Shown: positions 1,199 to 36,356 of the stretch, piece by piece
How positions within the stretch are numbered: position 1 is the stretch's first letter
How the letters are laid out: each line of letters starts with the position of its first letter
Source of the DNA: Lingula anatina
Lineage: Eukaryota > Animalia > Brachiopoda
Direction: 5' to 3'
DNA: 64,000 bases
NCBI GenBank assembly: GCA_051362555.1
Contig: CM120643.1
Location: 12,064,644 to 12,128,643 of the forward strand
Made by a program: the position numbers and the translations under genes
The notes under the pieces: model-generated
Told to the model about the DNA's origin: nothing
Databases searched by the model: none
Seen by the model: the letters and a program-made list of their open reading frames with translations, nothing else

Positions 1199-1991
1199 AT
1201 GGAAGTTGACTATCCACCTCCTCAAATTTGTATGGATCAGAGTTCTAAGGGAAATGGGAAAAGTACTCCAGATACCGATCACTCCTATAGCAGTGTCCTC
1301 GTAGATGACTCACATGTGGATGAGAGCTATAACGACTATAGTATAAAACCAAATTCCCAGAATAATGTGCATCTTCAGGGGAAACTTGAGATGGATGCTG
1401 GAGACAATTTGTGTCAGGGAAATATTGACTCGGAGACGGGATTATATACTGAAGCAACTATTGTAATCAGAAAGCCAACAGAGGATGGTAGGATAAAAAC
1501 ACAGGAGGAACGACTAGGTACTACGGAAAAATGTGCTGCCAAAGGTAATGCATTGTCACAAAATTGGGGACAGATCCATATAGTGAAGGAGAATGATGAA
1601 CACTCAACTCCCCAGAACTTGAGAGACCCACATCCTCATTCAGTTGACCACATGGACACATCAGATAATTTGATAAAGGTGGAGAACTTGAGTAACAGTG
1701 CCATAGGAGTGCCAACAGTGCCACAATTGGAGTCGGAACACTGTTATGGGAAGAACAGTAGAGATTATAATCAGGAGATTAAAACGAATCAGAATGTGGA
1801 GGGCAGTGATGACACTGATATGGAGATTGATATAGAGATTGGAGTGGAAGAAGTAGAAGTGAATACACTGGAAGATGTTGATGAGGGAAGTGGCATGGAG
1901 GTTGAAGAGGAAAATCAAGTTCTGATTGAACCAGAGGAAGTTGAAGTGTCAACAAAGTCAGAGGATGGAAAAAGTGATACTCCAGGAAGTA
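1199..1991 (+). CDS. Coding exon 1: acidic, low-complexity N-terminal region
   Basis: Part of the 268-aa ORF, E/D-rich. Donor A|GTAAG at 1992 is phase 1, matching the next exon. Confidence 0.75.
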
Positions 1992-4900
1992 GTAAGAAGG
2001 ATTAACAATACTCTTTTAAGTGAAAGTAAAATTTGTTGTATCAAATATATTTTAAATTTTTGCAAACTGCATGTACCAGAGATTGGTCTATCATTTTGAC
2101 AAAGGATGTGTTCACAACCAACTTGAGCTGTGGCCTAACTAAGCAGTGGCCTAAATATGGCACAACCCACTTAAAAACATGGTGTGCAATCCCCTAATAG
2201 AGCCAAGAGTTAAATGCTCTGCCCCCGTGGGGATGGCGCCAGACATGCTGAAACTGACGGTCCAATCAGTCATGACCGGGAAATTTTTTCTGGACCGGTA
2301 AAAAATTGGACTTGGTTGGTCCAAAGGACCGACAAGAGTTTTAAGAACCACAATTTTGAATTTACATTCATCATTCGACATAGTTCACCAATAAAATTAT
2401 ATAAAACCCAAAGCCTTTTTCCCTTCCATTTAAAACCTATCACATCCACAAACAAAGTAAGCTACCTAATTGTACTGGTAGTATCTGTCTCGAACGAATA
2501 GGGCGATTTTTGGTCCGACAAAAATCATTTGGTCCGGCAAATTTTTTATTACTGCCGGTCCAAATGTCTGGCCATTCTGAAAAGTTTTCAGCATGTCTGT
2601 GGTGTGTGTGTTAGGCAGGGAATCCATCAGGGAATTACACGCCTTGCTTCCCAGTGTGTGCCATATTTGAGCTGAGGCTCAGTTAGCTATATAGGCTGTG
2701 TGGTAACTTAGTTGTGAACACTCCCTAAGCTGCTGTATAGTTCTATTTCATGCAGTAAATTCACCACAAATGCAGCATAGAAATATAATGTTTATGCTTT
2801 TTAATTATCTGCCTGAAATTTTGATCATTTTTGCCCATTGAAAATATGGAGTCATAAATGTAATCAAAATCCTTAAAAATATTCTGGCTATGATTTCAGC
2901 ACTGCAAACTCTCAAGGCACTGGCAACACCCTTTCAACATTCAGAAACAAAGAGCTCCGATGTTGACAGCAGGATTCTGGCTTTGGTCATCCACTCACTG
3001 GAGAATGAGTCCCTTGCAGACCATTCTCTGTACTCCTTTATGACAGTGAGAGTGCATTTAGTGAATGGAATAACTGGAAAACCAATGCAATGTCAAAATG
3101 GGTATGAATAGGTTATTAAAATGTGCAGTCTGGAAGTATAGTGTTACGGTAGCAGTAATAATGTCCTTGACTTCAATGTCTTACATTTTTGAGTTCATGG
3201 TCACAGTCATCGTATAAATTTTCTGAAAATATCAATAGTATTTTATTGAATTCCTACCCCAAATATATGGGTCTTATTTTTAACCAGTAGTTGAATGCCT
3301 ACATATCCATTTCTTTGAATTTTGTTGAATGTCTTTCTTTAAGTTTTTTTCTTCTTATAAATTTATCTCTAACATAATATCATTTAGTTTTAATTCTGAA
3401 CCACAGTCATAAACATATCCCCATTTAAAAAAAAATGCACAAAAGGATACTTTTTGAAAGAGTTTTTAATAAGGGCTCGTTCCCACTGAAACTCTTGTTC
3501 TACATTGACGGGGACTTTAACTGAAGTCTAACAGACTATGAAGCCTCCTCCTGGCATTGAGTAGAAAACAGAAAAGCTGGGCCCAGTTTTATAAAGGACG
3601 TTTATCACTAACCAGTGGATAAGCCTAACCAGTGGATAAATTCTCCTAACACCCATTAACTAAAAGATGGTTAAAATGTGTTTCATATACAGTGTTCTGA
3701 CTGAAAACAGCCAATAAGTTAACTGGCCAGTGTTTAACTGGATAAAATAATTATTTAAAGGTCAGTTAACTAACAGACTGTTTAAACACTGTTTATGAAA
3801 CACAGTTTCATCCGTCATTTAGTTAACAGGGTTTAGGGGAATTTATCCACTGGTTAGAGTTAAACACTGGTTAGTGCTAAACGTCCTTTATAAAACTGGG
3901 CCCTGGTGATTATAATAAATACGAGTATGTTGAAAATGAGGAGGGGTGTTAATCTAACCCAGACACCTTGTAGCTTTCATTATGCTTTTAATCCTTCTTA
4001 TCAAATTTAGGGAGATGGTTTTACCTAGGATGACAAAACCATGGGACTTTAAAGTAAACAGGTAAATGCACCAGCTATATATTATAGTATATTTACCTCT
4101 GCCAAGGAGGTTATGTTTTCACCTCTGTTTGTCTGTTTGTCATCAACATAACTCAAAAAGTTATGGACCGATTTTGATGAAATTTTCAGGAATTGTCAGA
4201 AGTGGGCCAAGGAAGAGATGATTAGTTTTTGTTGGTGAACTGGACCAATAATCAATCAATAATCAATAACAATCAAAAGTCGCTGCCTTGGCTGAGGTCT
4301 GCACTCTCGGAGTGCTTTTCTAGTTGGTGTTATAAAACAAGTAGACTTTAGAGTATGATGCTGATTGCTCTAAGCTTGGCTTCTAAAATTCTGTTTTTGT
4401 AAATAAGAAACTTTTTCAGATTAAATATATTCAGGTATTTCAGCATATCCTACTTTGCTAAATAATCAGGAAGACATGTAGCTAGATATTGAATCCTCAT
4501 AGTGAATTTTGCTTTGACAGTCCTTCATAACCTTGCAGCATGGCTAAGAATAAAAACAATACACAAAGACAATTTTATTATTATATGTAGGGTATGAGGA
4601 TGAAAAAATTGTTTTGTCTCATTTTGCTTAGTATGCTGTTTTAAAGCGTAAAGTGGGATAAGTATAGATGAGTTGAGACCCACACAAATAATTATGAGAA
4701 AGGATGTTATCTTTTTATGTACAGACACAGATGTGTCTGTACATATTGCCATCACCTGCGTCTGTCGTCGCCGATGGCGCTGCCGATGCCGATGCCGATG
4801 CCGATGCCGTGCACTTTCCTTGTAAACACGATAAGTGGAGGGCAGTTTTACTTTTTGGCTTTAAATTTACAGAGCTGATGAATATTCATAAAACGCAGGT

Positions 4901-7900
4901 CAAGTTCGAAAATCAGCATGATCGGGCCATTATTGTAGAAGTTATGCTGTTTTTTCACTTTTCAGCATATTTTTCACATTTCCTCAGATTCAATTCTTAG
5001 GCATGTTAACAGTCTCATTATTAAACTAATAAGATACGTAAAAGTTTTTGTTTGACATTTCCTGCATCTTTACAACATTGTTAGTTGATTTTGTAAAAAT
5101 GATGGTAAACTTGTTATCGTGTATTGTGTAATAAAGTTTCAAAAATGGAAATAAACTCATATCATTGCAGTTTGTCAGATTCAATCATTCACTATGTTCA
5201 GAATCTCAGAATGGAAGAAATTGGACATTTAACACTGCTTTATTGATATTTTTCCCATCTCATCAATTTTCTTAGTTGATCATATAAAAATGGCATTAAA
5301 CTGTTAATTTTGTTTTATGTTAAAAGTTGTTAAAAATGGAAAAAAAAAACATTTCAGAACAGTGCTGTCTTGTTTACATTTTGGCATTTTCAAGTTGTGA
5401 CTTTGAAGTTCCATGGGCCTGAAGACCTTTGCTAGTCACATTTTCTGAATATCCATGATACTAATATTTTATTATTAAAAATTGATGGTCATTATGCTGT
5501 TAAACATTATGTAATATTGCATCAAAATTTGAAAAAAACTATTTTGGGCACTGCTCCCATGATGACCATTTAAGAAAAACCATGTCACTTACTGTTCTCA
5601 AACAGTACAGTAAATATATATATATATAGATGTGTCTGTACATATTGCCATCACCTGCGTCTGTCGTTGCCGTCATCGCCGTCACCGGCGCCGTGCACTT
5701 TCATTGTAAACACGATAAGTGGAAGGCAGTTTTACTTTTTGGCTTTATATTTACAGAGCTGATGAATATTCATAAAACGCAGGTCAAGTTCGAAAATCAG
5801 CATGATCGGGCCATTATTGTAGAAGTTATGCTTTTTTTTCACTTTTCAGCATATATGGAACACTGTAAACACATTCCAAGGAAAACCGATAGGCCTGTTG
5901 TCATGAAACTCACAGAAGTAATCTATCTTACTAAAACGCAGGTCAATTCGAAAATCGGCATGATCAGGCCACTATTTTAGTAGTTATGCTTTTTTTTTTT
6001 TTCACTTTTCAGCATATATGCAACACTGTAAACACAATATACGAAAAACGGATAGGCCAATTGTCATTAAACTCACAGGAGTGGCCAATCCTGCTAAAAC
6101 GCAGGTTGAGTTAAAAAATCAGCATAATCGGGCCATTATTTTAGAAGTTATGTTGTTTTTTCACATTTCCTCAGATTCAATTCTTAGGCATGTAACAGTT
6201 TCATTATTTAATTAATAAGATATTAAAAGTGTTTGTTTGACATTTCCTGCATCTTTACAACATTGATAGTTGATTTTGTAAAAATGATGGTTAATTTGTT
6301 ATCGTGTATTGTGTAATAAAGTTTCAAAAATGGAAATAAACTCATATCATTGCAGTTTGTCAGATTCAATCATTCACTATGTTCAGAATCTCAGAATGGA
6401 AGAAATTGGACATTTAACACTGCTCTATTGATATTTTTCCCATCTCATCAATTTTCTTAGTTGATCATATAAAAATGGCAGTAAGCTGTTAATTTTGTTT
6501 TATGTTAAAAATTGTTAAAAATGAAAAAAAAAAAAACATTTCAGAACAATGCTGTCTTGTTTACATTTTGGCATTTTCAAGTTGTGACTTTGAAGTTCCA
6601 TGGGCCTGAAGACCTTTGCTAGTCACATTTTCTGAATATCCATGATACTAATATTTTATTATTAAAATTGATGGTCATTATGCTGTTAAACATTATGTAA
6701 TATTGCATCAAAATTTGAAAAAAACCTACTTTGGGCACTGCTCCCATGATGATCATTTAAGAAAAACCATGTCACTTACTGTTCTCAAACAGTACAGTAA
6801 ATATGTACAGATGTGTCTGTACATATTGCCATCACCTGCGTCTGTCGTCGCCATCAGCGCCGTCACCGGCGCCTTGCACTTTCATTGTAAACACGATAAG
6901 TGGAAGGCAGTTTTACTTTTGGGCTTTATGTTTACAGAGCTGATGAATATTCATAAAACGCAGGTCAAGTTCGAAAATCAGCATGATTGGGCCATTATTG
7001 TAGAGGTCATGCCTTTTTTCACTTTTCAGCATATTTCACATATTGGCATTTTCAAGGTGTGACTTTGAAGTTCTACATGCTTGAAGACCCATGCTAGTCA
7101 CATTTTCTGAAAATCCATGATACGTATATTTTATTATTAAAAATTGACGGTCATTATGCTGTTAACCAATATGTAATATTGCATCAGAATAGAAGAAAAC
7201 AATTATGGGTGCTGCTGCCATGATGACCATTATGGGAAAACCATGTTACTTATGATTGCCAAATGTTCAAAAAAGAAATGCAGGACTAAAATGCAGCCTG
7301 AGTTGGAAAAGTAGTCTAATTGGCTTCTTTTTCTGGAAGTTATACATTTTCAAAGTGTGAACTTGAACTCCCATGGGCCTGAAGCCTTATGCTTGTTACA
7401 CATTTTACTTACATTGGTATTACCTGTTGAGCATAATTAAAATTTGATGTTGAATTTGCAGTTTAACATAATGTACTTTTGCATCAGAATTGACAGTAGC
7501 CTATTTTGTGCATAGTTATTTCCTGCTTTTTGTCTGTACATTTGACAGCTTTGCTGCCTTGTTTTTTTTTTCAGAACGAAGACAGCTGTGTGGGAAGAAC
7601 TTTGCCTCTTTAAAGAAAGTTACAGTTACGTCATGGAAGAAAAGCATCAGGCAGTTTTCCTGTTTGAGGTAAAGCCAAGTGTAATGAAGCTCCATTCCAT
7701 AATCAGTATTGCCATAAACTTTTCAGCTTATAAGTAACTGGCCATTCAAACCACCACCTTGAAATTCCAAAAATCTACAGGCCCAGATCGGGATTCACAA
7801 TTATGAATACAATATTTTAATAAGACTGGACATATTACATGGATATTTACTAGTAACAGAACCTTGATTTTGTTACACAAGAATCATCGTTTAACAGTGG

Positions 7901-10900
7901 CATTGCAGAAAAATTTAACCAAACCAAACGCTCTTGAAAACATCAGGAAAAACCTAATGGCCTCATCAGACCACTAAATTCACACATTCTGAAAAATGTT
8001 TTGGTTCAAGCAAAATTTTACTGGCCACAGGCATAGAACCAGTGGCTATTTTGTGGACTGCATAATTTTAGGTCAAGATTTGACATTTGCTGAAACACAA
8101 TGATCTTCACTAAACCTTGGTTTTGATGAGATCAAGTCAGTGGCCTTTGTAGGCAAGTATGTTATGCTGTTATGCTGTTTATGATGTAATCAAGTCTGCA
8201 ACCTTGTGATAAATTACACCATTAAGTAATGGTTTAGTGTACTTTCAATTATTTGAAATATATCTGATTTGAGTAAGCAGTATTTTCTCATGGAGTATTG
8301 GAAAAAGACAACGCTGTCATGTATATTTATACTTCAGGTAATGGATGCTTCTAGTTTGAATACTGCCAACCTGAAGAACCGGCTTGCAGTAGCTGGAGAA
8401 GGCAGGGTGATAGCATGGGGGTTCTTGCCAGTGAGTAGTTCCTAATGATATCACACTTAAAACACTGCCATACGTAGCTCATTAGCAGGGCTTTTATACT
8501 GCCATCTAACATACCCCAATCACCAGTGTTCTTGAAAAACTTTGGACACATTATGTCTGTCATAAAATATCTCTATGTCAGACATTTGAAAAATATATAA
8601 TTTTTCATGGTTTACTTATAAAAACAAGTCTGATAACAACAGCAGCACAAAACAGTGCCTACATCAGGTACAATGTGAAATAGTGGCCTCATTTTTCAGC
8701 ATGTCACAGTCTGTGACATAAGCTTTTCAGCTCTCTGACCATTCGGATCACCGATTGCTTACAATCACTTGTCTGACTTAAAATTTGCCCGAAAAAAAAA
8801 ATTCCAACAGACTGGACATATACCTCTATTACATCAAAGCTAGTAAAAACGAGACCTTGCTTTGTCAAATCTTTTTATATTTAGAATTACATGTAAGAGT
8901 TTGAGATTTCAGAAAAATATCAAACAAATTGAAAATGTCTTCTGAAATCTTTCAGTTTCACAATAATTGTTTTGGTAGAATAAGTGAACTGCCTTGAAAA
9001 ATTTACTAAAAGAATTGTACTTCATATGTATGTTATACATACATTAGAATTTCCCATGTCCACACACAAAGTACTGGTAGATAAAAAAGCAGAATGTATA
9101 TTTTTTTAATTATTTTTTTATGTTTTTATATCCTTGTCTTTTTATAAAAAAAAAATACCCTTAAAGAAAGAAAAGCAAAGCCATGTAATGGTGCTCAGAT
9201 GTTGCTTTATTTATATAATTATTATTATCACTAATAACCTTAAATTTTAATCACTATAACTATTTGAAAATTTAAAATGAACCTTTTATCACATACACAT
9301 GTAAATTGCCAATTGAAAAAATCAAATATAATAAAATTATGCACAATAACACAATGGTCCATCATGCTTGTTGGATTAAGAAAAACTATTAAGATCATCT
9401 CACATTTACTTTTAAAATCCACTAATTACTTTTTTAAAAAATAAAAAGTTACATCGTTTTTATCACCGAGTCTGTACTTTATGGCAGCTGAGCAGAAACC
9501 AAAAAGATAACTGCTTTGTTATACATGTAAGTTACCTCAACTCCCAAGTGCCTGTTCTGCACTGGGGGAGACGGAGTACAGCGCCACTGTGTCTGCTCTA
9601 TCGACATGTGCTCACCCTTCAACTGTGTGGCTTTTAAACTGGCCTGAACTGGTTCAGCAGTGGTAGGCCAAACATATAGTAGTGGGGATTATATATCAGT
9701 GTCATTTTTTACCACAGGATTGACTTGTTTGGGAGAATCTAATTCAGAGTCCAAGTGTGGATATTCTATTTTAGTTCAAAAGAATAAAGTAAGTTGCAGT
9801 AAACTATGAATTTGCTTTTGAAAGTAAATTTAAAAATTAATTAAAAAATTGTGCTTAATCCCAAAATTTTACAAGGAGGCTAGAAAATGCTTGTTAGGGC
9901 AAGACTAATATCAATGCATATTTTACTTTTTCGCGCTGGAGCAATTTGTGCAGTGGCAAAAAGCATTGGCAGCTGAGCCAGGACTTAGTATTTTAGATGC
10001 TCTGCCATTTGATAGTGCGGACATTGTGACTGACATGCTGATGTTTCACGTCAGACATTTACAATTTATGACAGACATGTTCGGCTGTCCGACGGTTTTT
10101 CGGGAACACTGCCAATCACACTGCCACATCTAACACGCAAACCAATTAGACTATCACATACAACTCATTGTCACACTAAGTATACTGTCACATCAAACAC
10201 ACTGGCACATGTAGCAAACTTTTGCATCCACCTAACTTTCACTAATGTCCAAAAGAAATAAATCAAGGATACACATTTGTTTTATTTCCACCTTTGGTAG
10301 TTTTGATAGAAGCTTTTCAAAGACAAGCTGGTTTTTATGTTGAATGAGATTTAAAGTTCGTATTTTTCCAAAAATGGAAAGGTTTGAGTCAACAGATAAT
10401 TCATGAATAACAGTCTAATTTGCATTTTACAGGTGACGAACAGTAAAGGAAAGGGGAGGAAGTGGTTACAATTATACTGGCCTCAAAAGAAAACACTAAC
10501 AAAACAAGGAGAAATTGAGGTAAAGCACTGTTTCATCAATTTTCACAATGGACCTTGAATTGAAAAATGAATACTTATCACCCAATGATAAGAGCTCCTG
10601 GTCTTTATATTTATAACTTGAATTGAAAGTAGAATTTTTTCTTTTGCCAGAAATGAGGACAAACTGTAAGCATTTTGAATTGAACAACAAGCCAATTTAC
10701 TATTAATATCATGGTTATGGTTTTCAAGTATGCTTCCAGTATGGGTTTTTAAATAGATTAGTACTATTATGACTATTACTTCTATCAACACATTTAATAT
10801 TTAATTTATTATTTCAGCACTTAAATAATTAATTCACAAGTGGAACGCTCTTTGATTTTGTTTCTTCCAATATTTCCAGGTCTTTCACTGGTACAAGTCA

Positions 10901-13900
10901 AAACAAGAAAGATGTGTGTATCCAGCCTCTCTGACTGTTTCTGTGAATGGTGTCATTCCTAGAAACCATCTGAAGCCATCCTGTAGCAACTTACCTCTGT
11001 CGGTAGGTAGATATAAATTGTTATATTGGTCTGCATTTCCTGACTAATGAAAATCTTAGCTCAACTTGGATATTGAACTATATTCATTGGACTAAGACCC
11101 CATTCCCACAGATTTTAGATCGATCTATCCCCTTTGGGAGTCTCACTAGATTACTGTCAGCTTAGCTGGCTTAAATGTCTGTCCCGCCTACTAAAAGCTG
11201 TAAGGGGGTAATTAACTTCCGTGCACGGTTGGCTAACAGCAATTTAGCGTGAACCCCCAGGGAGTAAGGTCGATCTAGTTGGATCGATCTGAATCTCTGG
11301 GAATGCGCTCTAAGTGGTGTAGTCAAAGGGTTTAATTTTTTTAATGATGTTCCAGAAATTGATTTTATTACAGATTTTTAAGAATGCTCTTCAACTTGGT
11401 AGGATTTCACAAGGAATCTAAAAATTCCCGCTTAAGTGAGGTGTAAAATTTTTCCTGTATTAACCATAGGTTTTAGGGTGCAATTACCCCCTTCTTATGA
11501 CTGAGCACTTTAGATTACCATCTATTTTTGAAAAAGAGTTTCAATTTTATTACTAAATTTTTGTCTTCATTTTCCAGAGAGAAAATATTCCAGGGGTAAA
11601 GAGAAGAAAAAACAAGGAAAAAACTCAAACCCCCATTTTATGTCAAGAAGCTTATAGCTTACTAAAACAATCCCCTTCCAAGAGTGTATATATTTTGAAT
11701 GTGGCTGGGTCTGGTGGGATTGTTCCCCTGGGAACCAAAGGTGCCTCCAACCCCATGCCAGTGGCCCTGGCGAAGACTTCATACCCAGAATATCAGGCTG
11801 GAAGAGGAGCAGTTGAACTTCCAAAAAATGTGACAGCATCGAGTCCACCACCACCAGTGGTCCCCATGGCAGCTTCACCACCAGTGGTTCCCATGGCAAC
11901 TCCACCACCTGTGGTTCCCGTGGCAACTTCTACCCCTGCAATCCAGACTTATGATGGTGGAGGGGTTTGTCAGGGGGTAAAAAATGCACCCCCCTGTCAG
12001 CTTGTAGTTCCCAGCAATACTTCATATGTAAATAACAATATCATGGATTACAAGGTTGCACCCCAAAGGTTACACCACTCAGCAGACAATCCAGACAGCC
12101 TTTTGCAGCAGCCATTGAGAACAGAAACAAGTCCCACTGCAGCAGACCAAAGTGGGCAAACCAATATGATATTAAAGGAAGAAAATTCTCATGGAGCCAT
12201 TCCGAAGAATTGGAGTCCAATATCAGACAATGCTGTACCTCTTGCAAATCAAATCAAAAAAACAGTGGTTTCCAATACACCTATTTTTTGTGAGAAAATG
12301 TCAAGTGATTTAGGGCCTGTAGGTACTCTTCTTTACAGTATTGGAATGGATTTAGTGAAAGAGAGAGCTTGTAAAGGGCTGATACGTTTGCAGACCAAAA
12401 AATTGGAGGAAAAGAAACTGGATGAAAAAGAAAAAGAGCAGCTTGAGCAGTTGAGGCAATTTTATTCTGATACAAGACAAAAGAACCGTCAGCTACATCT
12501 AAAGAAACAGAAGTGCCGGAAATGTAAATTCAAAACAGAATCCCTGAATGTAATGGAAAATCATTTGGAATATCCACACATGCAAGGGACATACATGAAT
12601 TGTTCCTTCTGTAATTATGGCACCAGCCAAAGCTTAACTTCAGCATTTACCCAGCACGTGAAAAAGAAACACAAAAAGCAACCACGTGCCATGCCAAAAT
12701 CAGCACCTCATCAGTGCCCATTGTGCTCTTATGATAATATCCATTCACTCCGTGTTTCGCAGCATTTGGCATTATGTCGAAAAACTTTTAATTTTGCCAA
12801 AAACTTAGCCCCAGAACCAAATTTTTTGCACCACTCCCTTAGTCTTGATTTCATAAAGAAGCCAAAAGCAAACCAACCCAGTAGTGTCCCTCATCGCGAT
12901 CCCAATCAGATGTCAATTCAACCAAGAATTTTGAACAAATCATGTTTGAAAAAATCAAAGACAGTGAAGGAGCAACTATCTGGTGTAGCTGTTTCAAATA
13001 AATGCCAGTCGTCAAATGTTGCATTCAAGTCCTTAGGTTCTCTACCCAATAAGACTAATGTTTTTTTAAACAGTAAAGTTCCCTTCACGCGGGACAACAA
13101 TGGCTGTTTTACAGTTTTACAGTTCAAACAAGCAACTCCAACTGTACAACAGACGAATGTCAATACAGCCAAGCTGTTAAATTACCAAATTGGGCCTGCG
13201 GTTGGCATGATCAATCCAGTGGCTCCATCTGTCCAGCAAATTTCAACCAGCCAACCTATTAGCCAATCTGGTGTACCGTTGACATCAGGGACATCAGGTT
13301 CAATTGGTGTGCCTGTGGGCATCATCAGGGCAATCATCAACCCAGCTGCTGGGGTGCAGCCGATAGGGTCAGGTTTGCAGGTATTTAAGATAAATGATCA
13401 GCTCTTTACCTCAGCTGGCAAATCCCTAATCCCAGTGAAAACAGCAGCACCAGTGGGGATTATTAAGTTGAGTGACCCACAGAAAGCAACTACAGCTAGT
13501 GGTGCTTTGTCCATAGTTCAAGGAGCCCAAGTGCATGGAAACCCAAATACCCAAAATCTAAATCTGTCAGGGGTGGCATCAACAACTATTCAGTCAAAGC
13601 TACCACCAGTCAATATCCAGTCAGTGGTTCCATCAAAAAGTATCCAGCTGAAGCTACCACCAACCAATATCCAGTCAGTGGTTCCACCAACCAATATCCA
13701 ACTGATGGAAGAACCTACCAATATCCAGACAGTGGTTCCAACCAGTATCCAACTGAAGGTACCACCTACAAATATCCAGTCATTGGTTCCACCAGCCAGT
13801 ATCCAACTGAAGGTACCACCTACTGATTTCCAGTCAGTGGTTCCACCAACCAGTATCCAACTTAATGTACCACCTACCAATATCCAGTCAGTGGTTCCAA

Positions 13901-15494
13901 CAACTAGTTTCCAGCCAAAGGTAGAACCTACCAATATCCAGTCAGTGGTTCCAACAACTAGTTTCCAGCCAAAGGTAGAACCTACCAATATCCAGTCGGT
14001 GGTTCCAACAACTAGTTTCCAGCCAAAGGTAGAACCTACCAGTATCCAGACAGTGGTTCCACCAACCAGTACCAAGTCAGTGGTTTCACCAACCAGTATC
14101 CAGCTAAGGGGAGAACCTTCCAGTACCCAGTCAGTGGTTCTACCAACCAGTACCCAGTCAGTGGTTCCACCAAATAGTTTCCAATTGAAAGAAGTACCAA
14201 CCAGTATACAACCAAAAATGCCACCAAAGTTTATTTATGTGCAGCCAGAAGTTATAGCAACCAATGCTGCAAGTCTCAAGCGTCCTTCTCCTGTTGAAAA
14301 TTCTCAAGATGCCGGAGCCCAAAAATGTGCTCGATTGGACCAAGAGTATATTGTGTGTGAACTATGTGATGGATATGTCAAAAATAATGATGCATTGAGA
14401 CTTCATTTTCGTAATGTCCACCAAATTGAAATATTTCCTAAGAAAATTATTACATGCGCCATATGCAATTACTCATTCTGGACCTCAAGTGGTTGGAGGA
14501 AACACATCACAAATGCCCATGCCCAGAATGGGTGCTACCTGTGCAGAGAGTCCTGGTCTGGTGATCTGGTCTCACATCTGTTCTCTGCCCATGGAGTCGA
14601 TTACCAGGATGTCCTGAAATTGAACAAGTGCATCGGCTGTGGACAGGCGTTCTACTCTGAGAAACAGTTAAAGGCACATATGACCGTGTAAGGAAAAAAA
14701 TTTATCTGGATACTTTTTGTTATGTACATATATTTATTTGGATCACCATGTCTTTCTGTGACTTTGCCATTACTGCCATCTTTAGAAATGCTGTTAAATT
14801 TGTCTCAACCTTTGGTGGCCTGTATTTATCATTCAATCAGTGACAGTCTTTTGGCAGAGGGTTTGCTGAACCTTTTATCTACTAAAGGGTTCATCAACTA
14901 CATAAATTCCACCTTTTTACTGTTGTCATTTTTGTTTAATTTTTCTAGCAATTATTCTTAGATTGTTTGTATTTGAATACATTTTCCATATTAACATCAT
15001 TTTTATTTTGAAGGTACCATGGGCTGGACTTGTGGGAAATGAATTTGAATGCCAAGAAAATGAAAAGAAATCGTTCTAGCATTCGCTCTCCAGCAGAACA
15101 TCTTGCACAGCAAGGGTGCAAACAATGTGGAATAGAAGCTTTCCCCGACATCCAGCACTATTGCCAACACTTTAAAGTTACACACGGGGGCTTTACATGT
15201 AACCATTGTGTCATTAAGCTATCCTCAGTGCATGCCCTGGGAATGCACCTTTTCAAAAGCCACCAAGTGAAATTGTTCATGTGTGACAGGTGTTGGTTCA
15301 GGACCTCCTATGAACATACCTTGCAGCAGCATTCCATGAGTTGTCAGAAAAAGACTGTGCAGACTCCAGTACCTATTGGTGGCATTGGTCGCTCCTCCCA
15401 TCTCCGGCTGCTCCCGCTCCACCACAGGAAGTGTGAAGTACGGGTCAAGAGACTTACGCGTGATGAGATTGCTAAATACACCAGCAGGTTGTGA
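1199..15494 (+). CDS. Multi-exon gene: acidic N-terminus + AHI1/Jouberin-like C2 domain + MEP-1-like C2H2 zinc-finger protein (about 1677 aa)
   Basis: Exons 1199-1991, 2900-3101, 4011-4061, 7575-7668, 8338-8430, 10433-10519, 10880-11002, 11578-14687 and 15014-15494. All introns are GT..AG, with phases 1,2,2,0,0,0,0,2 matching across junctions. Total 5034 nt, an open frame ending in TGA at 15492-15494. An in-frame TAA at 1142 lies upstream of ATG 1199. Confidence 0.8.
2104..2725. mobile_element. MITE with GTGTTCACAAC inverted termini, containing a nested element
   Basis: gtgttcacaac (2108) pairs with gttgtgaacac (2711-2721). There is an inner aaatatggcaca/tgtgccatattt inverted pair. Confidence 0.55.
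2240..2599. mobile_element. Nested non-autonomous DNA transposon
   Basis: Perfect 14-bp TIR CAGACATGCTGAAA / TTTCAGCATGTCTG. Flanks are tggcgc and tggtgt, a possible decayed TSD. Confidence 0.7.
2900..3101 (+). CDS. Coding exon 2: start of AHI1-like C2 domain (RILALVIHSLE...VRVHLVNGITGK)
   Basis: Acceptor tttcag and donor gtatga. The peptide resembles Jouberin LGVYIH...VKIHVVDEHTG (recalled). Confidence 0.8.
3580..3902. mobile_element. PIF/Harbinger-type MITE
   Basis: Long TIRs GGCCCAGTTTTATAAAGGACGTTTA.. / ..TAAACGTCCTTTATAAAACTGGGCC, with a 3-bp CTG TSD on both sides. Confidence 0.85.
4011..4061 (+). CDS. Coding exon 3 (51 nt): EMVLPRMTKPWDFKVNR
   Basis: Acceptor tttag and donor gtaaat, phase 2-2. 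Resembles Jouberin ILPIMTQPYDFK (recalled). Confidence 0.8.
4090..4325 (+). mobile_element. Non-autonomous Helentron/HINE-like element
   Basis: Subterminal IR gccaagg/ccttggc, (GTTT/GTCT) microsatellite, 3' hairpin gcactctcggagtgc followed by ttttctagtt. Similar 3' ends occur at about 25507-25547 and 34653-34694. Confidence 0.65.
4728..7270 (+). repeat. Intronic tandem triplication of a roughly 0.9-1.2 kb unit with Helentron-like internal 150-170 bp subrepeats
   Basis: gatgtgtctgtacatattgccatcacctgcg starts at about 4729, 5628 and 6809. Block 4975-5610 recurs at 6162-6805. The gtaaacac...aaaacgcaggtcaagttcgaaaatc subunit is repeated. Confidence 0.85.
7575..7668 (+). CDS. Coding exon 4: TKTAVWEELCLFKESYSYVMEEKHQAVFLFE
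   Basis: Poly-T tract plus cag acceptor and gtaaag donor. Carries the C2-type WEE..F...FLFE motif. Confidence 0.85.
8338..8430 (+). CDS. Coding exon 5: VMDASSL...GRVIAWGFLP
   Basis: Acceptor ttcag and donor gtgagt, 93 nt. IAWGFL resembles Jouberin IAWAFLK (recalled). Confidence 0.85.
8524..10111. mobile_element. Non-autonomous hAT-like transposon (1.6 kb)
   Basis: TIRs CAGTGTTCTTGAAAAAC / GTTTTTCGGGAACACTG, with an exact 8-bp TSD CCAATCAC on both sides. Confidence 0.85.
10433..10519 (+). CDS. Coding exon 6: VTNSKGKGRKWLQLYWPQKKTLTKQGEIE
   Basis: Acceptor ttttacag and donor gtaaag, 87 nt. LQLYWP resembles Jouberin LQLYYP (recalled). Confidence 0.85.
10880..11002 (+). CDS. Coding exon 7: VFHWYKSKQERCVYPASLTVSVNGVIPRNHLKPSCSNLPLS (end of C2 domain)
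   Basis: Acceptor tttccag and donor gtaggt, 123 nt. Resembles Jouberin FEWW...YPSTLYVTVRG...KPS (recalled). Confidence 0.85.
11096..11310. mobile_element. Tourist/Harbinger-like MITE, copy 1
   Basis: cattccca..agatcgatc / gatcgatct..tgggaatg inverted ends and TAA TSD. Related copies lie at 15958 and 36687. Confidence 0.7.
11578..14687 (+). CDS. Coding exon 8 (3.1 kb): MEP-1-like zinc-finger region
   Basis: Open frame from the acceptor at 11577 into the 998-aa ORF. Motifs IGMDLVKE, KCRKCKFKTES...HLEYPHM, HQCPLC and YIVCELCDGYVK...HQIEIFPK match the MEP-1 (MOG-interacting and ectopic P-granules) family pattern. Donor gtaagg at 14688. Confidence 0.9.
13590..14225 (+). repeat. Coding tandem repeat (27-bp/54-bp period; PTNIQSVVP-like)
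   Basis: Roughly 20 degenerate 9-aa units. Near-identical 54-bp copies start at 13873, 13927 and 13981. Confidence 0.9.
15014..15494 (+). CDS. Terminal coding exon: further C2H2 zinc fingers
   Basis: Acceptor ttttgaag, phase 2 giving HMTV-YH, which completes a finger. Contains CKQC..H..H, CNHC..H..H and CDRC motifs. Confidence 0.88.
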
Positions 15495-15957: not shown

Positions 15958-16199
15958 GGGACCATTCCCAGACCCTATTGTACTAACCGTAGATTGATCT
16001 ATCTATGAGGGGATTCTTGCTAAATTGCAATCAACTTAGAAGTGTGTCATTCCTACTCAAGCTGTAGGTTTAATTATCGTTTGGCAGCTTCAGTAGGCAT
16101 GCCAAACATCTACGCCACTTAAACTGAAAGCAATTTAGCGAGAAACCCCTTGGAGTTGGATTGATTCTGTTAGATCGATCTAGGTATGGGAACCCAGTC
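15958..16199. mobile_element. Tourist/Harbinger-like MITE, copy 2
   Basis: Same family as 11096, with TTA TSD on both sides. Confidence 0.7.
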
Positions 16200-20112: not shown

Positions 20113-20830
20113 ATGGGACTCGATCTCCTCGCCTTCTGGTCTGTAGTCTGCAACGTTACCAGTTCCTCTATTCCCCCAACCACCCACCCTAAACTTTGCA
20201 TCTTCCCTTTATAGTTATGGGACTAATACTCATTTTTTTTACAAAGATTTGTCGTCTTTAGGAATCGATCCTGTAACCTTATGGTCCGCAGTCGGGAACG
20301 TTACCAGTTTCTCTATTCACCCAACCACCCACCCTAAACTTTGTATCTCTATTTTATAGTTTGAGGCGATCATTTGTTTTTTTCTTCCACGAAAATTTAC
20401 CGTCTTTGGGAATCGATCCTTTAAAGGGATAATAACTCTTCGTATGAGATCTATATTTCACAATAAAAACATTGTGAACAACTCATAGAAATATAATATA
20501 TTCTGTTGTACCACGAAACGGCAGTTATAGCTATTATTCTGATATCTGAGCTTGTCTACTCTTTAGACCACGAGACCTCCATTGATGGCTATACTCTGTT
20601 ATAATCTCTTAAGATATTATAACAAAAAACTTTTAAGAATAAAAAAAACAGACTAGCTTTGAATGTAAAAATGGATTCATTAACCATTGGTAAGTATGGG
20701 AAAATTGTTGTTTACTGCAGGAAAATTCGTTTTTTGGCCAAAACGAAGAGTTATTATCCCTTTAGCCTTCAGGTTCCCAGTCTGACATGCAGGCGATTCC
20801 TCTATTCACCCGGTAACCCACCCAAATTTT
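20113..20830 (-). repeat. Three tandem, roughly 146-bp tRNA-derived units; the third is interrupted by a transposon
   Basis: Units begin gggactcgatc/ggaatcgatcc at about 20115, 20260 and 20408. The minus strand reads TAGAGAAACTGGTAA...GACTGCGGA...GGATCGATTCC (A-box- and B-box-like). Confidence 0.55.
20425..20761. mobile_element. TTAA-targeting non-autonomous transposon (Kolobok-like), copy 1
   Basis: TIR AGGGATAATAAC / GTTATTATCCCT, flanks TTAA and TTAG, 337 bp. Homologous to 34162-34498. Confidence 0.8.
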
Positions 20831-22859
20831 TGCCCTACGTTTTTTAGTTTTTCTTGGCGCAGATTTGACTTTTTTGGACAAAATTTATCAAAAATTCATT
20901 AGGCAACAATCGATTTTTTTGTTCTGTTCGATTCCAATGTATATTGCACTTAGAATGTATGGTTATAAACCTAACTTTTGGGCAAAATTCATTAAAAAAA
21001 TAATGAAGCGGGATTAAAAGATTAATTTTGTTTTATCAGATTCTAATCAATACCGACATTCACTGAAATTAACAATGCAAAATAGTTAAACAGTTTCAAT
21101 AAAATATTTTAAAGGCACCAATATGGCTACGAATTACTTTTTCTATTTTAAAAAGCGTTTATGAGGTTACAACTATTCAAACCAAAAGATTCGGTAAATT
21201 TTATGAAACTGCTGAATGATAGACGCAGCGCGATTTCTTATTCAAAATTTGGAGGCATTTTTGGGTAAAATAAATAAAGCAATTCCACATTACGACGACA
21301 AGAAGACCGCGTGTATACAGATGATGAATTAGTTAATTTTTTAAAATTTATTCACATTACAATTATATAAATCAATGCAGATAACAATAATGTTTTTCTC
21401 AACATGAATGTATTTACTGCTATGTACTATATGATATGAATTAATCTTATGAAGCCATGTGAAGTTATAGACTGGGACAAAAAATTGAGGTTGGTTTCAT
21501 GGTGTAATGACTCGGTTGAATGATTTATATTAAATGACAATAATAGCACGGTTTCACTTACATGTAAATCAATCACAATTCTTTTTATCACTAGTTTCTT
21601 GGTGACGCATATCCTATCTTAAATACGCCTGTCTTCCATTCACTGTACAACATCAACATTATGCTACCAGTACTACCGCGTTCGTTGTAAGCCCCTCCAC
21701 TTCAACCTCAACCTTCAACATTCCACAAAGTGTCATTTTCCGTACAAAAAGCAAAAGACAAAGATGAACTGTTCCCAACCTGGTGGAAATGACCATCTTT
21801 TTCGACATTGGCCACGTGGTTGTTTGCTTCCTGTTGCACCCGTTTTATTCCCCAGATCAAATGACATCAGCACGAAATGTCTTAGACGCAAACATCTTCC
21901 ACACATGTAAAACAAGTGTCTTATATCCTCAGTATCACTGCCGTCTTCACCGTCCCATGCTGCCCAAGGAATCTCTGTCTGTACTTTTCAACTTACAGTA
22001 TGAATGTTCATGATTATTCTGACATCTCTGATAACTTGTCCTCCAATCTGGACGTTACGTAACATTCCATTCAGCCTACCACACAGAGAGTCAGCAGGTC
22101 GGTGATCCGATTAAAAATCTCTGTGTCATTTTCCAGTTGACAGGTATTCTAGGGAGACCTTCGTAAACTGCCACTGTTCAGATTTATGTCACATTCACAG
22201 CTGTCGCTGTTTTTCTAAGGTTTTGACTTTTATTTGTAAAGAAAATTGACAGTTTAAATGGAAACCTTTAGGCTTGATGCATAATTAAAAGTGTGTATGA
22301 ACAACTAATAGTGGTTCTGCATGTACGGAGGAAAGTTGTAGTGGAAAATTCTACATAATAAAATAAATGCTGTGCTCCAAAATAGAATTACTTTACAAAT
22401 GGCAAAACTTATACAATATTTATTACGAATTTCACATGCTTTGAAAATTGGAGATGGCTTGCCAAAGTCGAAAATGATGATGACGTATTTCATAAACGTG
22501 AAAACATTTTTTCAAATCTACGTTAACTATTTTGTCTTTTAAAACATTTGAACTTCTATCTTGACAAAAAATAATAAACATATATCATTTATTGTCACAT
22601 GCTAACAATTCCAGAAAATAGATTGCGAGATATAACTTTAACAGCAAGTAAAATTTATTAGATCAATGTTTGTGAAGTTAACCGAGCACACGAAAAGAAG
22701 ACGTAAAGAATGTCAGTCATATACTGACGTCATACTCTTCATTACAGAACCAATATGAAAGATGACTAAAAAGAACTTTCAAGTCGGTTGTTATTTTAAC
22801 AAAATATTCTAACTTCAATTCCAGATAAAGACAGTATTGATAAAAAAGTACTCGGCACT

Positions 22860-25708
22860 TCACAGGATTTGATAAGTATACACAATGCCTGCAAATTCCC
22901 CTTGGTATTCTGGTACTCTCTTTCTCTCCAACTTCCTCCACAGGTTATCGTCTTCGTGTATCTGCAGCCAGTCATCAAAACTCTTCCCTTCATGTCCGAC
23001 ATGTGGGAGGTGGACCTCCCGCGTCGCTATGATCACGTGGCCGCCTATCATAAAAAGCGGATTTTACGCTAAATAAACTGTTTTCGTCAAAACCAATTTA
23101 AAAATGAGCAGAACATTCCAGAAATGACATAATCTGATTCAAGGCCACTATTTACTAAGTAATGAAGATGTCAACACGGTGTGTTGGTCGCTAACCAGCT
23201 CGAGTTGCAATAAACCTTAACACGGCCAAAAAATTGTACGTTTAAAACGACAAAAGATCTTATAAGGTATTATGTGTAATGTGGGAAAGTGCCTAGCCAG
23301 TACAAGAGACTACATGTGTATATATACACCTCCCCTACCTGGTTTGGTTATACGTATCAGTTCTGGCAAACAGGCCGCAGTGGCATGACCAGGTATTATG
23401 GTTCCAACACACACTGTACACGTGTAATGTGCTGAAAATTAAACCAGCAAGACCTTAATTACTTATATTCAAGTTGCTTTCCTCTCTCTCTCTCTCTCTC
23501 TCTCTCGTTTTTCCGCCCTTCTCAGTGGACAGAGCTGGTGCCAATCGCAGGTCGCTGGTTGATGGAATTACCATTGGAATTAGCAACAAAGTAAACACAT
23601 TTTATCAAGAAGGTTCCCCTTTCGGTTTCAGAGTTTGCCGGCCATTTTTGCTATAAACAATAACTAATTTTTGTCCTTAACAAAGGTGACGGAAAATATA
23701 CGCTGTCAGTAGGTTTAATCTGAAACCTGACTAATTATCAATTTCGTAATAATGGCCATCATACACACAAAACATCCAAGCGGCAAACTGCCTTCTCTAT
23801 GTGTGATTCTGTGTCTGAAGTTAAAAGGCTGGTAAAGATTAAACAAATAGGGAATTATTCCAGATATTTTACAAAAATAAAAACCACACAAAATGCATGC
23901 AATTATCCACTTTAACAACTCTAGATCTGCATGCCCTAGCAATTTTGATACAAGTTGTAAGACAAAATCTACTCACCATATGAGTAAAAAATACGGAAAA
24001 TTAAGGATAATGCAGCTCATTGTCGAGAGGTAGCGTCCCAAAAACGTAACGGAGTTTGTAAAAAATTTCGAACCTATGTCGCTGGCGTAAAAAAGTAATA
24101 AAGCTAATACGAGAGAGCCGCCTTAAGTTCACTACCTGTGGGTATGTCCAACTTGTCTGGTCCCAGATAAGCACAAATGTACTTCTTATAAATCCCTTTC
24201 TCCTTGGCAACATCTAACATATCTTGGCAGCCATCAAGAGCGTCGATGTTAGTAAAACCGGCAGATTGGAGCTGAAAAATAAAAATGTAATATAAAATAT
24301 TTAGACATAATAGAGAGTATGAGTATTTCAAACCGGCCGTAAATTCATGATGGCAAAATGTTAGGAATTATTCTCTATCGTGGTGTCGTGCACAAACAAA
24401 ACCGATTGAAAGTCGGGTAATTACAGTTTTTACTTTTATGTAAAAAAAAAAACAAATTCAATATACACCCCCCCTCCCCAAGAAAGGAATAGAGAAAGAG
24501 AGAGAGAAAGATGGTTTTTGCAATAAAGCCTTATTACACCTATTATTTCTTTTAATAAAATTTAAAAAAGCATATATGATATATTGTGCTATGAATACTG
24601 ATACCTCTTTCCCCACACGCCCTGTGCCAGCGCCGGCGTCCAATATTAATGCTTTTCTGTCGTCACCCAAGACGTCTTTGACAACCTGGGCCGCGAAGAT
24701 AGGTGCCTTGGACTGAACTTTCTGCAAAGATTTATTTCGTGACTACAATATAGCCTTGTCATGGTACTGTCCCTGTATTTCTTGGAAGAAACAGCTGTCT
24801 TGAAACTCTAAAGGGAATAACCGAGGCCTGTTCCAAAAACAATTAAACTCAAAACATTTTGGCAAAGACGGTGAAGAATTTTAGGTTGCGTTTCACAAAG
24901 ATTTCCCAGGGCTTCATGATGACTTTGATATTCTCCAGGTACATTGTAAGCCCTGGATCAACTTGGCCAAGGTCTTTATACATAAAGTTGACGATATTTA
25001 CTTCGGATGGTCTTATTACATAACTGCATATATATTATATTGTAGGCCAATCGTTCGTAAACTTCATATAGATTTTTCTAAGTGGATTGAAATATAATAT
25101 TTACAAACTGGATATGCAGACAAATTGATGAAGCTATGACCTGACCTCTTGCGTCACGTCACACGCATACGCAGTCAGCGTCGAAGCTACGCAAGTTGCA
25201 ATAATTACGTTAAACATGCATTGGATCACTTGCTGTATTGGATTAAGATGTAATCACACACGAAGTTTCTTTCAAAAAGCCGAATATGCTTTTATGCTTT
25301 TGTGCGGTATATATATATATGCATATCTTTCTCGAAAGTGTTTCAAGGTACAAGTCAATTGTCTTTATTTTCTAACAAGATTAACTAGTCAAGACTCTCC
25401 AAGAAACGCCGTGCAGGCTCTGAAGAAAGCTAACTTTTCACGTGTTGTTGAAAACGTTATAACAGCCGAAGTTTCCTTTAAAAAACTTTTATTGTTTTGT
25501 ACCAGCTTCCTTGGCGGAGGTTCGTTCTCTCAGAGTGCTTTTCTAGTATTAAAATGTCGAGTTATGTTGTAGAAAAACTTACTATCATGCTTTGGTCGTA
25601 TGAATTGGCCCAGGATTTATACATATCCATAACTTGCTCAGCAGTTATGCCTGGAGTGGTGATTGAATCTACAAGCTGCCGGTCTTTCTTGGCATCAGCT
25701 GACGTCAT
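22860..25708 (-). CDS. METTL27: Methyltransferase-like protein 27 (WBSCR27-like) class I SAM methyltransferase, copy A, 218 aa
   Basis: Exons 25708-25583, 24721-24605, 24271-24136, 23431-23339 and 23044-22860; GT-AG, 657 nt in frame. Motifs YKSWANSYD, ILDAGAGTG, GFTNIDALDGCQDML, PGH and ELIRITKPGG. Confidence 0.9.
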
Positions 25709-26837
25709 TTTTTTTAATTTAGGGGTGTCAAATCTGGAAGATACTGGGTGAAGAACAAGAATGAATTTAAGAAAATACACAGTGATTAAATGTTTTTCTA
25801 AACAAATTATGCTTGCCGCGAAGTGCCCGTGCATACAAAAGATAGTTTATCGTCAAATGACGCAACTTTTTTTGCGGTTCAAATGATTAATGTGTCAACT
25901 CTAACCTAACTTCCCTGCTGGAGGTACAATCATATACACGGTTGTTATTTGCCAAATACGGGGGTGGGAATCCAAACCAAAAATACAGGAGTGTGTTTTA
26001 ATATATTCCGAAGGTTCGCTACGCCAAAGGTCCGCTATGGACACATTCAATACAGTGGACTTATCTGTGGATAAAATATGGCGACCCACTTAAATGCTTG
26101 CCGTCTGATCATCTAATAGCCACTGAATAGATTCTCCACGGAGATAACGCAACAAGTTTTCAAGTGGGTCGGCCATATTTGATCCGCGGACTAGTTTGTC
26201 CGCCATTGTGAATGCGTCCGGTGTTCTGAGTGTCCTCTATGGCGACAGTTCGCTGTTCAGAACTAATCGCACATGTTCATGTACAGATAGAGAGCAAAGA
26301 TAACAAAGTATATAAATAAACAAATGCCTAGTGCTAATGTTGTAAAAGTGGAAGCGTTCTAGGCAAAATGCAACAGTCGGTATGTGCCAGGGTATAATTC
26401 TCATTGCACGTCAAGCATTATTACAGCAAAGCATAGGAAGGTGTTTAACACATTATATCGCGCTATAAGGTTTGACTCTTAATTGCTGTTTTAAGGAGTT
26501 ATCTGAGCAGATCGCAAACGATTCAAATATGAGAGAACCTCCTAAATACGTTTCTTTGACACGGACGTCAGTGCTCGCCCCAATTACGCATAATACGCAT
26601 AACCATAAAAAAGCCTTTGGAACATAGAGCTGACCCCAAAATACAGTGCGCTGTATAGGTTGCAGCTTATTCCTCACATTCCATCTCTTTCCATATGTTC
26701 AGTCAAGATGCACACTCATGGACACCCGGTGTGTGCAAGAGGGAACTTCATGTTTTGACTTTCTTCACGTACATTTATTGAGCATTCCTGTTTATATAGA
26801 AATTGAAACTGAATTTTAACGGTTCTTCTTCACTTAC

Positions 26838-26905
26838 CCTGTTATCAGCTGTCCCGGTCCGGTAATACATATAGATCAAACTGACGTCAATAGATCACGT
26901 GACAA
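26838..26905 (-). promoter_or_regulatory. Probable 5' UTR exon and promoter of METTL27-like copy A
   Basis: Minus-strand donor GTAAGT at 26837. TGACGTCA (CRE, 26882) and TCACGTGAC (E-box/CLEAR-like, 26895). The block is conserved in copy B. Confidence 0.45.
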
Positions 26906-27714
26906 CCGATATAACACATTTCACTATATACGCATAGTAGTTAAACCTGGGTGTCCTTGGGAATAAGTCTCCTGCCTTTCACTTATGGATACTGTCTGCT
27001 TGACACATTCACCCAAAACCAATATAGAGGTGCAATTGAGGTCCAATTTGGTTCAGTTTTGTTGTAGGGCATGTAGGCCGTTGATACGTATTGTCTGTGT
27101 GGTATCTACTCCAAATACTGACGCTGTCAATGACCCTAGTCACTTTTGAAGCGGCACACGCTTCGTCGTAGGCCTCTTCGAATTCAGGATGTCTGTAAAC
27201 TCTGGTTTGACCAGTTGAGCGGTACAGGTGAAATCTGACCTCCATAAAGAAAGCCACGCGGTGTCATTGTTCTACCCAGAAATGGTCATGGTCCCCAATT
27301 CATTAGAGAAACAGACGACGCTGTTTTGCTGTTTACGATGGCTTCCTCAGAGGTCCTCTGGTATCCTATCCTGCTGAAAATAGGGTAGTGTTCGTTAAGA
27401 GCCTTGAAATACGCGTTTTGGTGGCAATTTGCCCCTAAAACTGTACGGACTGGGTGTTTTTTGTTTAGTTGCAGTAGCATATCCGGAAGGACAGTGAGAT
27501 CTGTACCGAGGTGGTAAGATTTTGATACATTGGTATAGGTACATCAGTCTGGGCATAACCCTATAATACCGTGCGGACCATTTCTTGTGACACAATAATC
27601 TGTCTGGCACTTATTAACAAATTTGTATAACACTGCTTATGTCACGCACTGCAAAACCAACCGCTTGCATGCAAAATTTCAAATTCTTCGATGCAGTAGT
27701 TGCCGACCTATGGA

Positions 27715-27717
<3 letters not shown>

Positions 27718-27764
<47 letters not shown>

Positions 27765-28400
27765 TTTTTGACAGAACCAAAGGAGCACTACCCAATTAAA
27801 TCAATGCATATTACACAATGGAGCAGTGCAACTGTGTGTTTTTCTTTTAAAAAGAACACATTGTTACCAATTAAATGTCAAGTCTGTGATTCACTGTCTA
27901 ACCCCAAAAAGGAACATACGTTACTGTCACAAATGCAAAACGTCCAGTTGTGAAACGCTTCACTCACTTTGAAAATTCAGTCATCACTGGTTTTGTTCTT
28001 TGATTTATCTCCTGCAAGCATAACGTTGTAAACATTTATCATAATCTTCTGTATAGAGCAGTTAATTGTTTTTTTGAGCGACTTTAGTTTGCTTGTTACT
28101 GAATATTAAAAAAACAGGGAAAATAAACCCTACCAACAGAAAAATAAGCATTGTTTTAAAATAAATAATTTTCCCCTCGTGATCCAAATATTATATCAGA
28201 AATGTCAAACTATCATGGAATCACAATATATTTTTCGATCAGCAACAGAAAACACTGTTTTCTATTGTACCAAGTACTTGAACAAAATGAAACTTTTTGA
28301 CAATTTTTCTGAGGAACATTCGTTACCTAGTATTAGCCATGACGCAAAGTCCCTTGAGTTGCAGTTTAAATATTTATAAAAACGTACCTAAGTCATATAT
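27718..28400 (-). mobile_element. Degenerate LINE 3' fragment with poly(A) tail
   Basis: About 45-nt poly-T on + (poly-A on -). The minus strand gives ICDSNVCSFLGLDSESQT*HL, resembling the decayed zf-RVT zinc knuckle of LINE ORF2. Confidence 0.35.
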
Positions 28401-30172: not shown

Positions 30173-30420
30173 ACACTGTAAAACATTACCCGTTTATTCC
30201 ACGGTAAAATACTGGCAGCTGGGGTGCCAGTAATTTACCGCGAAAAAGCGGTAGCGAAATAGTCACCGTTTTTGTAATTTACCGTGAAAAAACGATAGTA
30301 AAAAATAGTACTGCCAACAAATTCTGGTACTGTACCGCAATATTATTATCATTATCATTAAAGAGAGACTAGAAATAATATTTTCAGTTAGTTACCGTTT
30401 ATTTTCAGAGTATTTTATGA
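30173..30420 (+). mobile_element. CACTA/EnSpm-like terminus at the duplication junction
   Basis: Starts CACTGTAAAA, followed by repeated ttaccg/cggtaa subterminal motifs and the hairpin tactggcagc..gtgccagta. Confidence 0.55.
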
Positions 30421-31256
30421 GAGAACAGTTTCATTAGCTCTGTATGTATTTTCATTCCAGGTGAAATGACCCTAGTCATTTACTCCCTGATGATGGTGAC
30501 TGACAGTCACAGAAATATTGGAGGTAATACCCACATATTTTACAAGCTCTTGATAAAAAGAAAAACAGTAATTAGAGTATTTTATATTATGAACACTAGA
30601 TAATCTTACTACATGTACATGTATACACTATCCACAGTCTCATGATACTACGAATTTCAAAACTGTTCTTCACGTAAGTCTGTCATGTAAGTCTCCTAAA
30701 TAAAACTATTTGACAAATGGCAAAAGTTCTCCAATATTTATTACGAATTTCACATGCTTTGAAAATTGGAGATGGCATGCCCAAGTCGAAAATGATGATG
30801 ATGATGTATTTCATAAAAGTGAAAACTCTTTTTTTAATCTACGTTAACTGTTTTGTCTTAAAAAATACTTGTCTATCTTGACAAAAAATAATTAACGTAT
30901 ACCATATATTGTCACATGCTAACAATTCCAGAAAATAGATAAATTATGAGGTATATAATCTTTAACAGCAAATTAAATTTATTAGAGCAATGTTTGTGAT
31001 GTTACATGTAACCGAGAAATTTTGGAAAAGTAAGTTTTGTCCAACAATATTATTCAAACTTCCTTCACAGGCCTTTTGCGTTCATTCAACATAAACATGT
31101 AAAGAATGTCAGTCATATTCTGACGTCATACTCTTCATTACGGAACCAATGTGAAAGATGACTAAACAGAACCTTCAAGTCGCTTATACTATTTTAACAA
31201 AATATTTTAACTTCAATACCAGATAAAGTCAGTATTGATAAAAAGTCCTCAGCACT

Positions 31257-33319: not shown

Positions 33320-33373
<54 letters not shown>

Positions 33374-35859: not shown

Positions 35860-35890
<31 letters not shown>

Positions 35891-36287: not shown

Positions 36288-36356
36288 CCTGTTATCAACT
36301 ATCCCGGTCCGCTAATACATATAGATCAAAATGACGCTAACAGATCACGTGACAAC
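36288..36356 (-). promoter_or_regulatory. Probable 5' UTR exon and promoter of METTL27-like copy B
   Basis: Minus-strand donor GTAGGT at 36287. TCACGTGAC is retained and the CRE is altered to TGACGCTA. Confidence 0.4.

Follow-up and report, generated by a model that had tools for sequence, protein, structure and literature searches.

An AHI1-type C2 domain joined in frame to a zinc-finger protein, probably of the MEP-1 family: an apparent exon-shuffled chimera in Lingula anatina

Introduction

The C2 domain of AHI1/Jouberin has been defined upstream of the WD40 repeats and the SH3 domain of the same protein (Zhang and Aravind 2012, PMC3495828); in that account, the combination of C2 and WD40 forms an AHI1 core that goes back to the last eukaryotic common ancestor, and ancestral C2 domains of ciliary proteins are stated to lack Ca2+ binding. 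In mammals, according to a review (PMC5809511), jouberin is sequestered at the cilium and so kept from the nucleus. MEP-1, known from C. elegans and Drosophila as a member of the Mec complex, is described as a Kruppel-type finger protein that has a Gln-rich region and acts together with Mi-2/LET-418 and SUMO (PMC13458333, PMC3297578, PMC8131105). The Lingula genome paper (PMC4595640) discusses domain shuffling in this lineage, with the name 'AHI1' absent from its main text.

A gene that brings together elements of both systems was found in Lingula anatina, within a window (the whole stretch of DNA that was analysed) of 64,000 nucleotides. Its predicted protein has the whole AHI1-C2 with the motif order of AHI1/Jouberin, and no calcium-binding role is expected of it; in contrast to AHI1/Jouberin, it lacks the WD40 propeller and SH3 and has zinc fingers instead. 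With MEP-1 it shares C2H2 fingers and a Gln/Pro-rich region, but it differs in having the C2 domain and an array of 18-aa repeats, and its binding of Mi-2 and SUMO is putative. Two unnamed ENA proteins, P0001 (1,222 aa) and P0002 (1,227 aa), are collinear with it in both finger clusters (49% identity over 104 aa) and have an acidic N-terminus, whereas P0001 is without the C2 domain (436/500 shuffles score as high). The same gene is found in RefSeq as LOC106161572 (XP_013394018.1, here P0004), a record that says only 'uncharacterized protein' and names no domains.

A literature search found no published description of an AHI1/zinc-finger chimera, of a MEP-1 homologue in lophotrochozoa or of four accessions; the supplements of the Lingula genome paper could list the gene. 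With that search empty, and the architecture in RefSeq only as an unnamed prediction, the remark of the earlier note that it was not recognised from known proteins is borne out, and the gene is apparently an exon-shuffled chimera of undescribed architecture, deposited in RefSeq but unrecognised there.

Gene organisation

Nine coding exons on the plus strand, from an ATG at 1199 to a stop at 15494, form a single open frame of 1,677 aa; all introns are GT-AG, with phases 1, 2, 2, 0, 0, 0, 0 and 2. The features are as follows (X3, X4, X12 and X15 denote sequencing runs; P0003 is a further RefSeq protein).

1199 (ATG) to 1991, plus strand: exon 1, acidic low-complexity N-terminus (aa 1-264, 22% D+E)
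2900 to 3101, plus strand: exon 2, linker, then the opening strands of the AHI1-type C2
4011 to 4061, plus strand: exon 3, C2 with the LPxMTxPxDF motif; 3' end joined to exon 4 by a loose end in X4
7575 to 7668, plus strand: exon 4, C2 with the WEE motif; joint in X3, X4 and 6 X12 reads
8338 to 8430, plus strand: exon 5, C2 with the IAWxFL motif; joints in RNA
10433 to 10519, plus strand: exon 6, C2 with the LQLY motif; joint to exon 7 in 5 X15 reads and 4 X12 reads
10880 to 11002, plus strand: exon 7, final C2 strands; its donor, in phase 0, is that of the fusion junction
11578 to 14687, plus strand: exon 8, 3,110 nt; basic cluster first, then a Pro-rich linker, a helix with three zinc fingers, the repeat region and C-terminal fingers
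12316 to 12834, plus strand: helix and three-finger core, MEP-1-like, aa 728-900, within exon 8
13580 to 14207, plus strand: tandem array of 54-bp (18-aa) Pro/Thr/Ser/Gln-rich units, coding, in exon 8; one unit fewer in P0004
15014 to 15494 (stop), plus strand: exon 9, more zinc fingers, then the stop

All peptides cited in the earlier note were found in the translated exons, and the consistent splice phases that it read, with phase-0 entry into a 3.1-kb zinc-finger exon, are confirmed by a frame that stays open over 1,677 aa. The start Met of exon 1 is identical in the RefSeq proteins P0003, P0004 and P0005, and the 5' end of this exon is likely a candidate AG acceptor at 1135; a second RefSeq isoform uses an exon 1 donor 18 nt upstream. 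The joints of exons 1-2, 2-3 and 8-9 are consistent with P0003/P0004, and the exon 4 peptide is identical to P0003 in 31/31 aa. For the exon 3-4 junction, a variant at 4053/7582 was dropped, the X4 loose end giving 4061/7575.

The surroundings of the gene have features of their own. A possible promoter and 5' non-coding exon lie at 120-260, with a CTTCCGG motif near 140 and a GTGAGT donor at 242. Intron 3 contains nested direct repeats at 4727-7252, including 888 bp at 95% identity, and a high-copy short interspersed element is seen at 11092-11311, 15960-16192 and 36689-36933; the second and third of these match each other, and the assignment of all three to one family is a by-eye reading. Depth is very high at 11062-11300 in both DNA and RNA runs. 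Further downstream, a tandem duplication of ~12 kb (about 20400-30200 and 30700-42450, 75-94% identity) carries a multi-exon gene on the minus strand, in which a methyltransferase-like motif reaches a Pfam E of no better than 0.11. A minisatellite with 13 copies of a 34-bp unit occupies 38657-39115.

The C2 domain

Within aa 289-475, every block of the published AHI1-C2 alignment (supplement of PMC3495828) is present and in order. The AHI1-C2 motifs were recovered in order in 9/9 cases, the best of 20,000 shuffles reaching 2/9, in a test that is favourable by construction, the nine motifs having been taken from the published alignment once the match was known. The top ESM Atlas rows for this part are Aida_C2 (0.94) and 'jouberin-like' (0.94, with 186/256 features shared), the two ranking equal, and the lower rows are mostly other C2 families; the score thresholds of the Atlas are without calibration for protein parts. 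Motif order, alignment blocks and the jouberin-like match uphold the AHI1/Jouberin-type identity given in the earlier note, and to judge from the sequence the C2 part is almost certainly derived from AHI1. No C2 family was returned by Pfam for single exons or for the whole C2, and the PDB sequence search gave nothing for exon 7 or P0003; a single-sequence structure model had a mean pLDDT of 31, too low for the fold to be read. The domain, which is complete, is basic, with 25 K+R against 16 D+E.

The C2 has diverged from AHI1 orthologues, and ~13 inter-strand residues that most of the aligned animal orthologues keep are missing; in the same alignment (PMC3495828) these residues are also absent in bees, ants and Daphnia. 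Exon 5 spans a stretch that is absent from one zebrafish record in the AHI1-C2 alignment, and intron positions shared with AHI1 are thereby suggested, as would be expected of a genomic rather than a retroposed copy.

The loss of WD40 and SH3 proposed in the earlier note agrees with all three places examined: neither was detected in any of 103 downstream plus-strand candidate exons within the window (E<=0.05), the gene model ends at 15494, and Pfam finds no WD40 or SH3 family in P0004. The alternative of an intact AHI1 with the zinc-finger gene inside one of its introns was rejected, there being no WD40/SH3 downstream within the window. No second copy of the gene lies within the window.

The zinc-finger region

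Exons 8-9 are collinear with the unfused, unnamed P0001 in both finger clusters (160 and 92 bits; 0/500 shuffles reach each), and the core at aa 728-900 aligns to it with a score of 374 (0/500 shuffles as high) and has 0 substitutions relative to P0004. Exon 9 matches the C-terminal part of P0001 weakly (E 0.002; 8/500 shuffles). Finger-like motifs found by pattern number three in the N-terminal and five in the C-terminal cluster; nothing in the zinc-finger part lies above the Pfam cut-off, the best match being C2H2 with an E of 2e-5, below it. The two finger clusters and the helix preceding the first finger appear to resemble those of MEP-1, and the basic clusters at aa 489 and aa 1532 are, on a motif reading, what we take to be nuclear signals.

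Protein searches and ESM Atlas gave no named MEP-1 match, the Atlas returning generic C2H2 clusters, and the PDB sequence search gave weak generic fingers only, for the zinc-finger core and for P0001. Word-index protein searches, of low sensitivity and saying nothing on relatives, reached E<=0.001 in 0/561 candidates, in 1/258 and, among 22, for the query alone; a metagenome scan yielded 594 pattern matches, none of which was confirmed. The match to MEP-1 claimed in the earlier note is not established by the searches: the C2H2 fingers and Gln-rich region are present, as in the MEP-1 layout given in a figure legend (PMC13458333), but the tools return no more than the unnamed P0001 and C2H2 matches of a generic kind. 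From these sequence features, the zinc-finger part probably belongs to the MEP-1 family.

Origin of the fusion

The explanation that we favour, with moderate confidence, is a chimera of AHI1-C2 exons and a gene likely of the MEP-1 family, encoding a predicted nuclear chromatin adaptor with a C2 tag. Six intron-separated AHI1-C2 exons would have been duplicated, likely as genomic DNA through exon shuffling at the DNA level, and spliced in frame onto a multi-zinc-finger gene, likely a MEP-1 relative; the fingers and basic clusters suggest that the predicted protein probably acts in the nucleus as a chromatin adaptor, putatively via a Mi-2/CHD remodeller, and the C2 may be a tag that binds lipid or protein independently of calcium and biases its localisation.

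The direction of the event given in the earlier note, an AHI1 duplicate that acquired a MEP-1 copy, is not sustained, as the acidic exon 1 makes insertion of AHI1 into a zinc-finger gene fit equally. Under this tentative alternative, somewhat doubtful in itself, exon 1 and exons 8-9 would be the halves of one zinc-finger gene with an AHI1 fragment between them; it bears on origin alone and can be combined with the favoured explanation. The composition of exon 1 (22% D+E, 7% K+R) is like that of the N-terminal 300 aa of P0001 (30%, 10%), and RefSeq isoforms use two different donors of this exon, whose frame continues to its own stop at 2005; however, exon 1 is without ordered similarity to P0001 (403/500 shuffles as high), and the flanking intron phases, 1 and 0, differ, so that there is no symmetric cassette. 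Because exon 1 is acidic like P0001 yet without ordered similarity to it, 5' fusion and insertion are indistinguishable.

Allelic variation and constraint

With exon 4 as query, HMMER found a single match among 1.84 billion representatives, P0003, and no second 50% cluster reached E<=0.001; the P0003 cluster consists of three RefSeq proteins of Lingula anatina, each 'uncharacterized'. The 1,656-aa P0004 shows this fusion too, differing by 42 substitutions and two deletions that keep the frame, and is, judged by this comparison, another allele of the window gene; as it stands in RefSeq, the fusion is present in a second allele and was already predicted, but unnamed. A second RefSeq locus, LOC106167565, lies on another contig and is the source of P0003 and P0005, which comprise exons 1-6 followed by intron 6 to a stop, a read-through corresponding to window positions 10520-10558. 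The LOC106167565 protein differs from the window at 7/440 aa; relative to P0004 there are 21 differences and a gap. The locus could represent an allele that was not collapsed, a truncated model or a copy with the C2 alone.

Comparison of the window with P0004 shows amino-acid differences at 0/173 positions in the N-terminal finger cluster and at 1/277 in the C-terminal part. The C2 domain (3/187) is more conserved than exon 1 (21/261; p=0.002) and shows no excess of conservation over the exon-8 linkers (16/750; p=0.78). The amino-acid difference in exon 1 is 8%, with 0-2.4% in the longer downstream regions. No stop occurs among 41 coding variants in the best-supported rows of the read tables; in these rows, C2 exons 4-7 carry 2 replacement and 2 silent variants, too few to judge, and the finger core 3 replacement and 5 silent. 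The zinc-finger half looks to be under constraint, and the case for selection on the C2 part is weak. The proposal of the earlier note that the gene is functional holds as far as the intact frame and the seemingly constrained finger half are concerned; it extends only weakly to the C2, which is no better kept than the exon-8 linkers and has too few variants.

These comparisons bear on the main rival, a passenger domain after promoter capture, in which a duplicated AHI1 5' end would drive expression of the zinc-finger copy and the C2 would be kept open only as an upstream passenger. Conservation not exceeding that of the exon-8 linkers, divergence from AHI1 orthologues with the loss of residues between strands, and the single 50% cluster matched by exon 4 are all in keeping with it, but the nine motif blocks persist in order, the domain is better conserved than exon 1, and in ESM Atlas it is still recognised as a jouberin-like C2. 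We regard a passenger role as unlikely, though to be taken seriously; that the C2 is folded and doing something is an evenly balanced matter.

Transcription of the fused gene

The joints 7668/8338, 8430/10433, 10519/10880 and 11002/11578 are GT..AG and occur in contigs of both X3 and X4; an X3 contig of 3,384 nt starts 660 letters ahead of exon 4 and continues unbroken to 13560. None of the runs listed is recorded as RNA, and X3 and X4 bear the record label 'DNA?'; the fraction of sequence words present in these two is close to that made up by the exons, and because their depth is zero in most intron bins and the joints are GT..AG, we infer that their contigs are RNA. Both come from the study of the best DNA run and may not be independent. 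The fusion junction, 11002/11578, is also crossed by one raw read in X15 and one in X12, from two further studies (counts from ~6% of each run), with short-side overhangs of 21 and 36 letters. Read mapping covered the stretch around exons 4-8, to 13560, and stranded raw reads place the origin of the RNA on the plus strand. A DNA retrocopy as the source of the spliced contigs was ruled out, as X3 and X4 leave the introns uncovered.

Among the points to be checked according to the earlier note were RNA across 11002/11578 and an independent start of the zinc-finger exon. RNA from three studies crosses the junction; no leader for a separate exon-8 start is seen, as depth is zero at 11370-11569 in all four runs. 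With the junction in X3 and X4 contigs, single reads in X15 and X12 and a fused RefSeq model, the chimeric in-frame gene that the note described is substantiated, and there is little doubt that the fusion transcript is real.

X12 has 4-6 reads on the upstream joints, yet a depth of 0.04-0.1 at 11570-11969; neither X12 nor X15 shows a step-up in depth at exon 8. X12 covers exon 7 and the remainder of exon 8, with almost nothing at 11570-11969, and its reads carry 7 substitutions within 11920-11976; a divergent allele or an alternative acceptor may be involved. Read-through between two genes, with a C2-only product and a zinc-finger protein from Met541 as the main products and the fusion a minor conjoined transcript, could account for the small number of junction reads, the coverage dip of X12 just past the junction, the C2-only RefSeq model P0003 that stops in intron 6 and the presence of the internal Met; it is nevertheless very improbable given the unbroken contigs across the junction in X3 and X4, the nil depth upstream of the exon-8 acceptor, the lack of a step-up there in X12 or X15 and the existence of a full fused RefSeq model. 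An assembly or prediction artefact is hardly conceivable, given the spliced joints in RNA of three studies, the DNA contigs of another study that cover both sides of intron 7 and the different allele in RefSeq.

Biological implications

In the favoured explanation, a chimera with a C2 tag, a role of the C2 in tethering is plausible by analogy, since mammalian jouberin is reportedly kept at the cilium and off the nucleus (review PMC5809511). A more far-reaching possibility, which we consider remote though not negligible, is that the fusion is an ancient one, conserved across brachiopods, and serves as the animal's working MEP-1; the C2 would then anchor a repressor that recruits Mi-2 at the base or membrane of the cilium and release it to the nucleus, so that a single protein would link the cilium directly to chromatin.

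The C2 of AHI1, tied to the WD40 propeller since early eukaryotes in the account of PMC3495828, is here detached and reused on a zinc-finger protein. A ciliary module has been joined to a likely chromatin repressor in a transcribed new architecture that was overlooked by Pfam and RefSeq, and the gene offers a natural test of whether AHI1-C2 alone targets a protein to the ciliary base.
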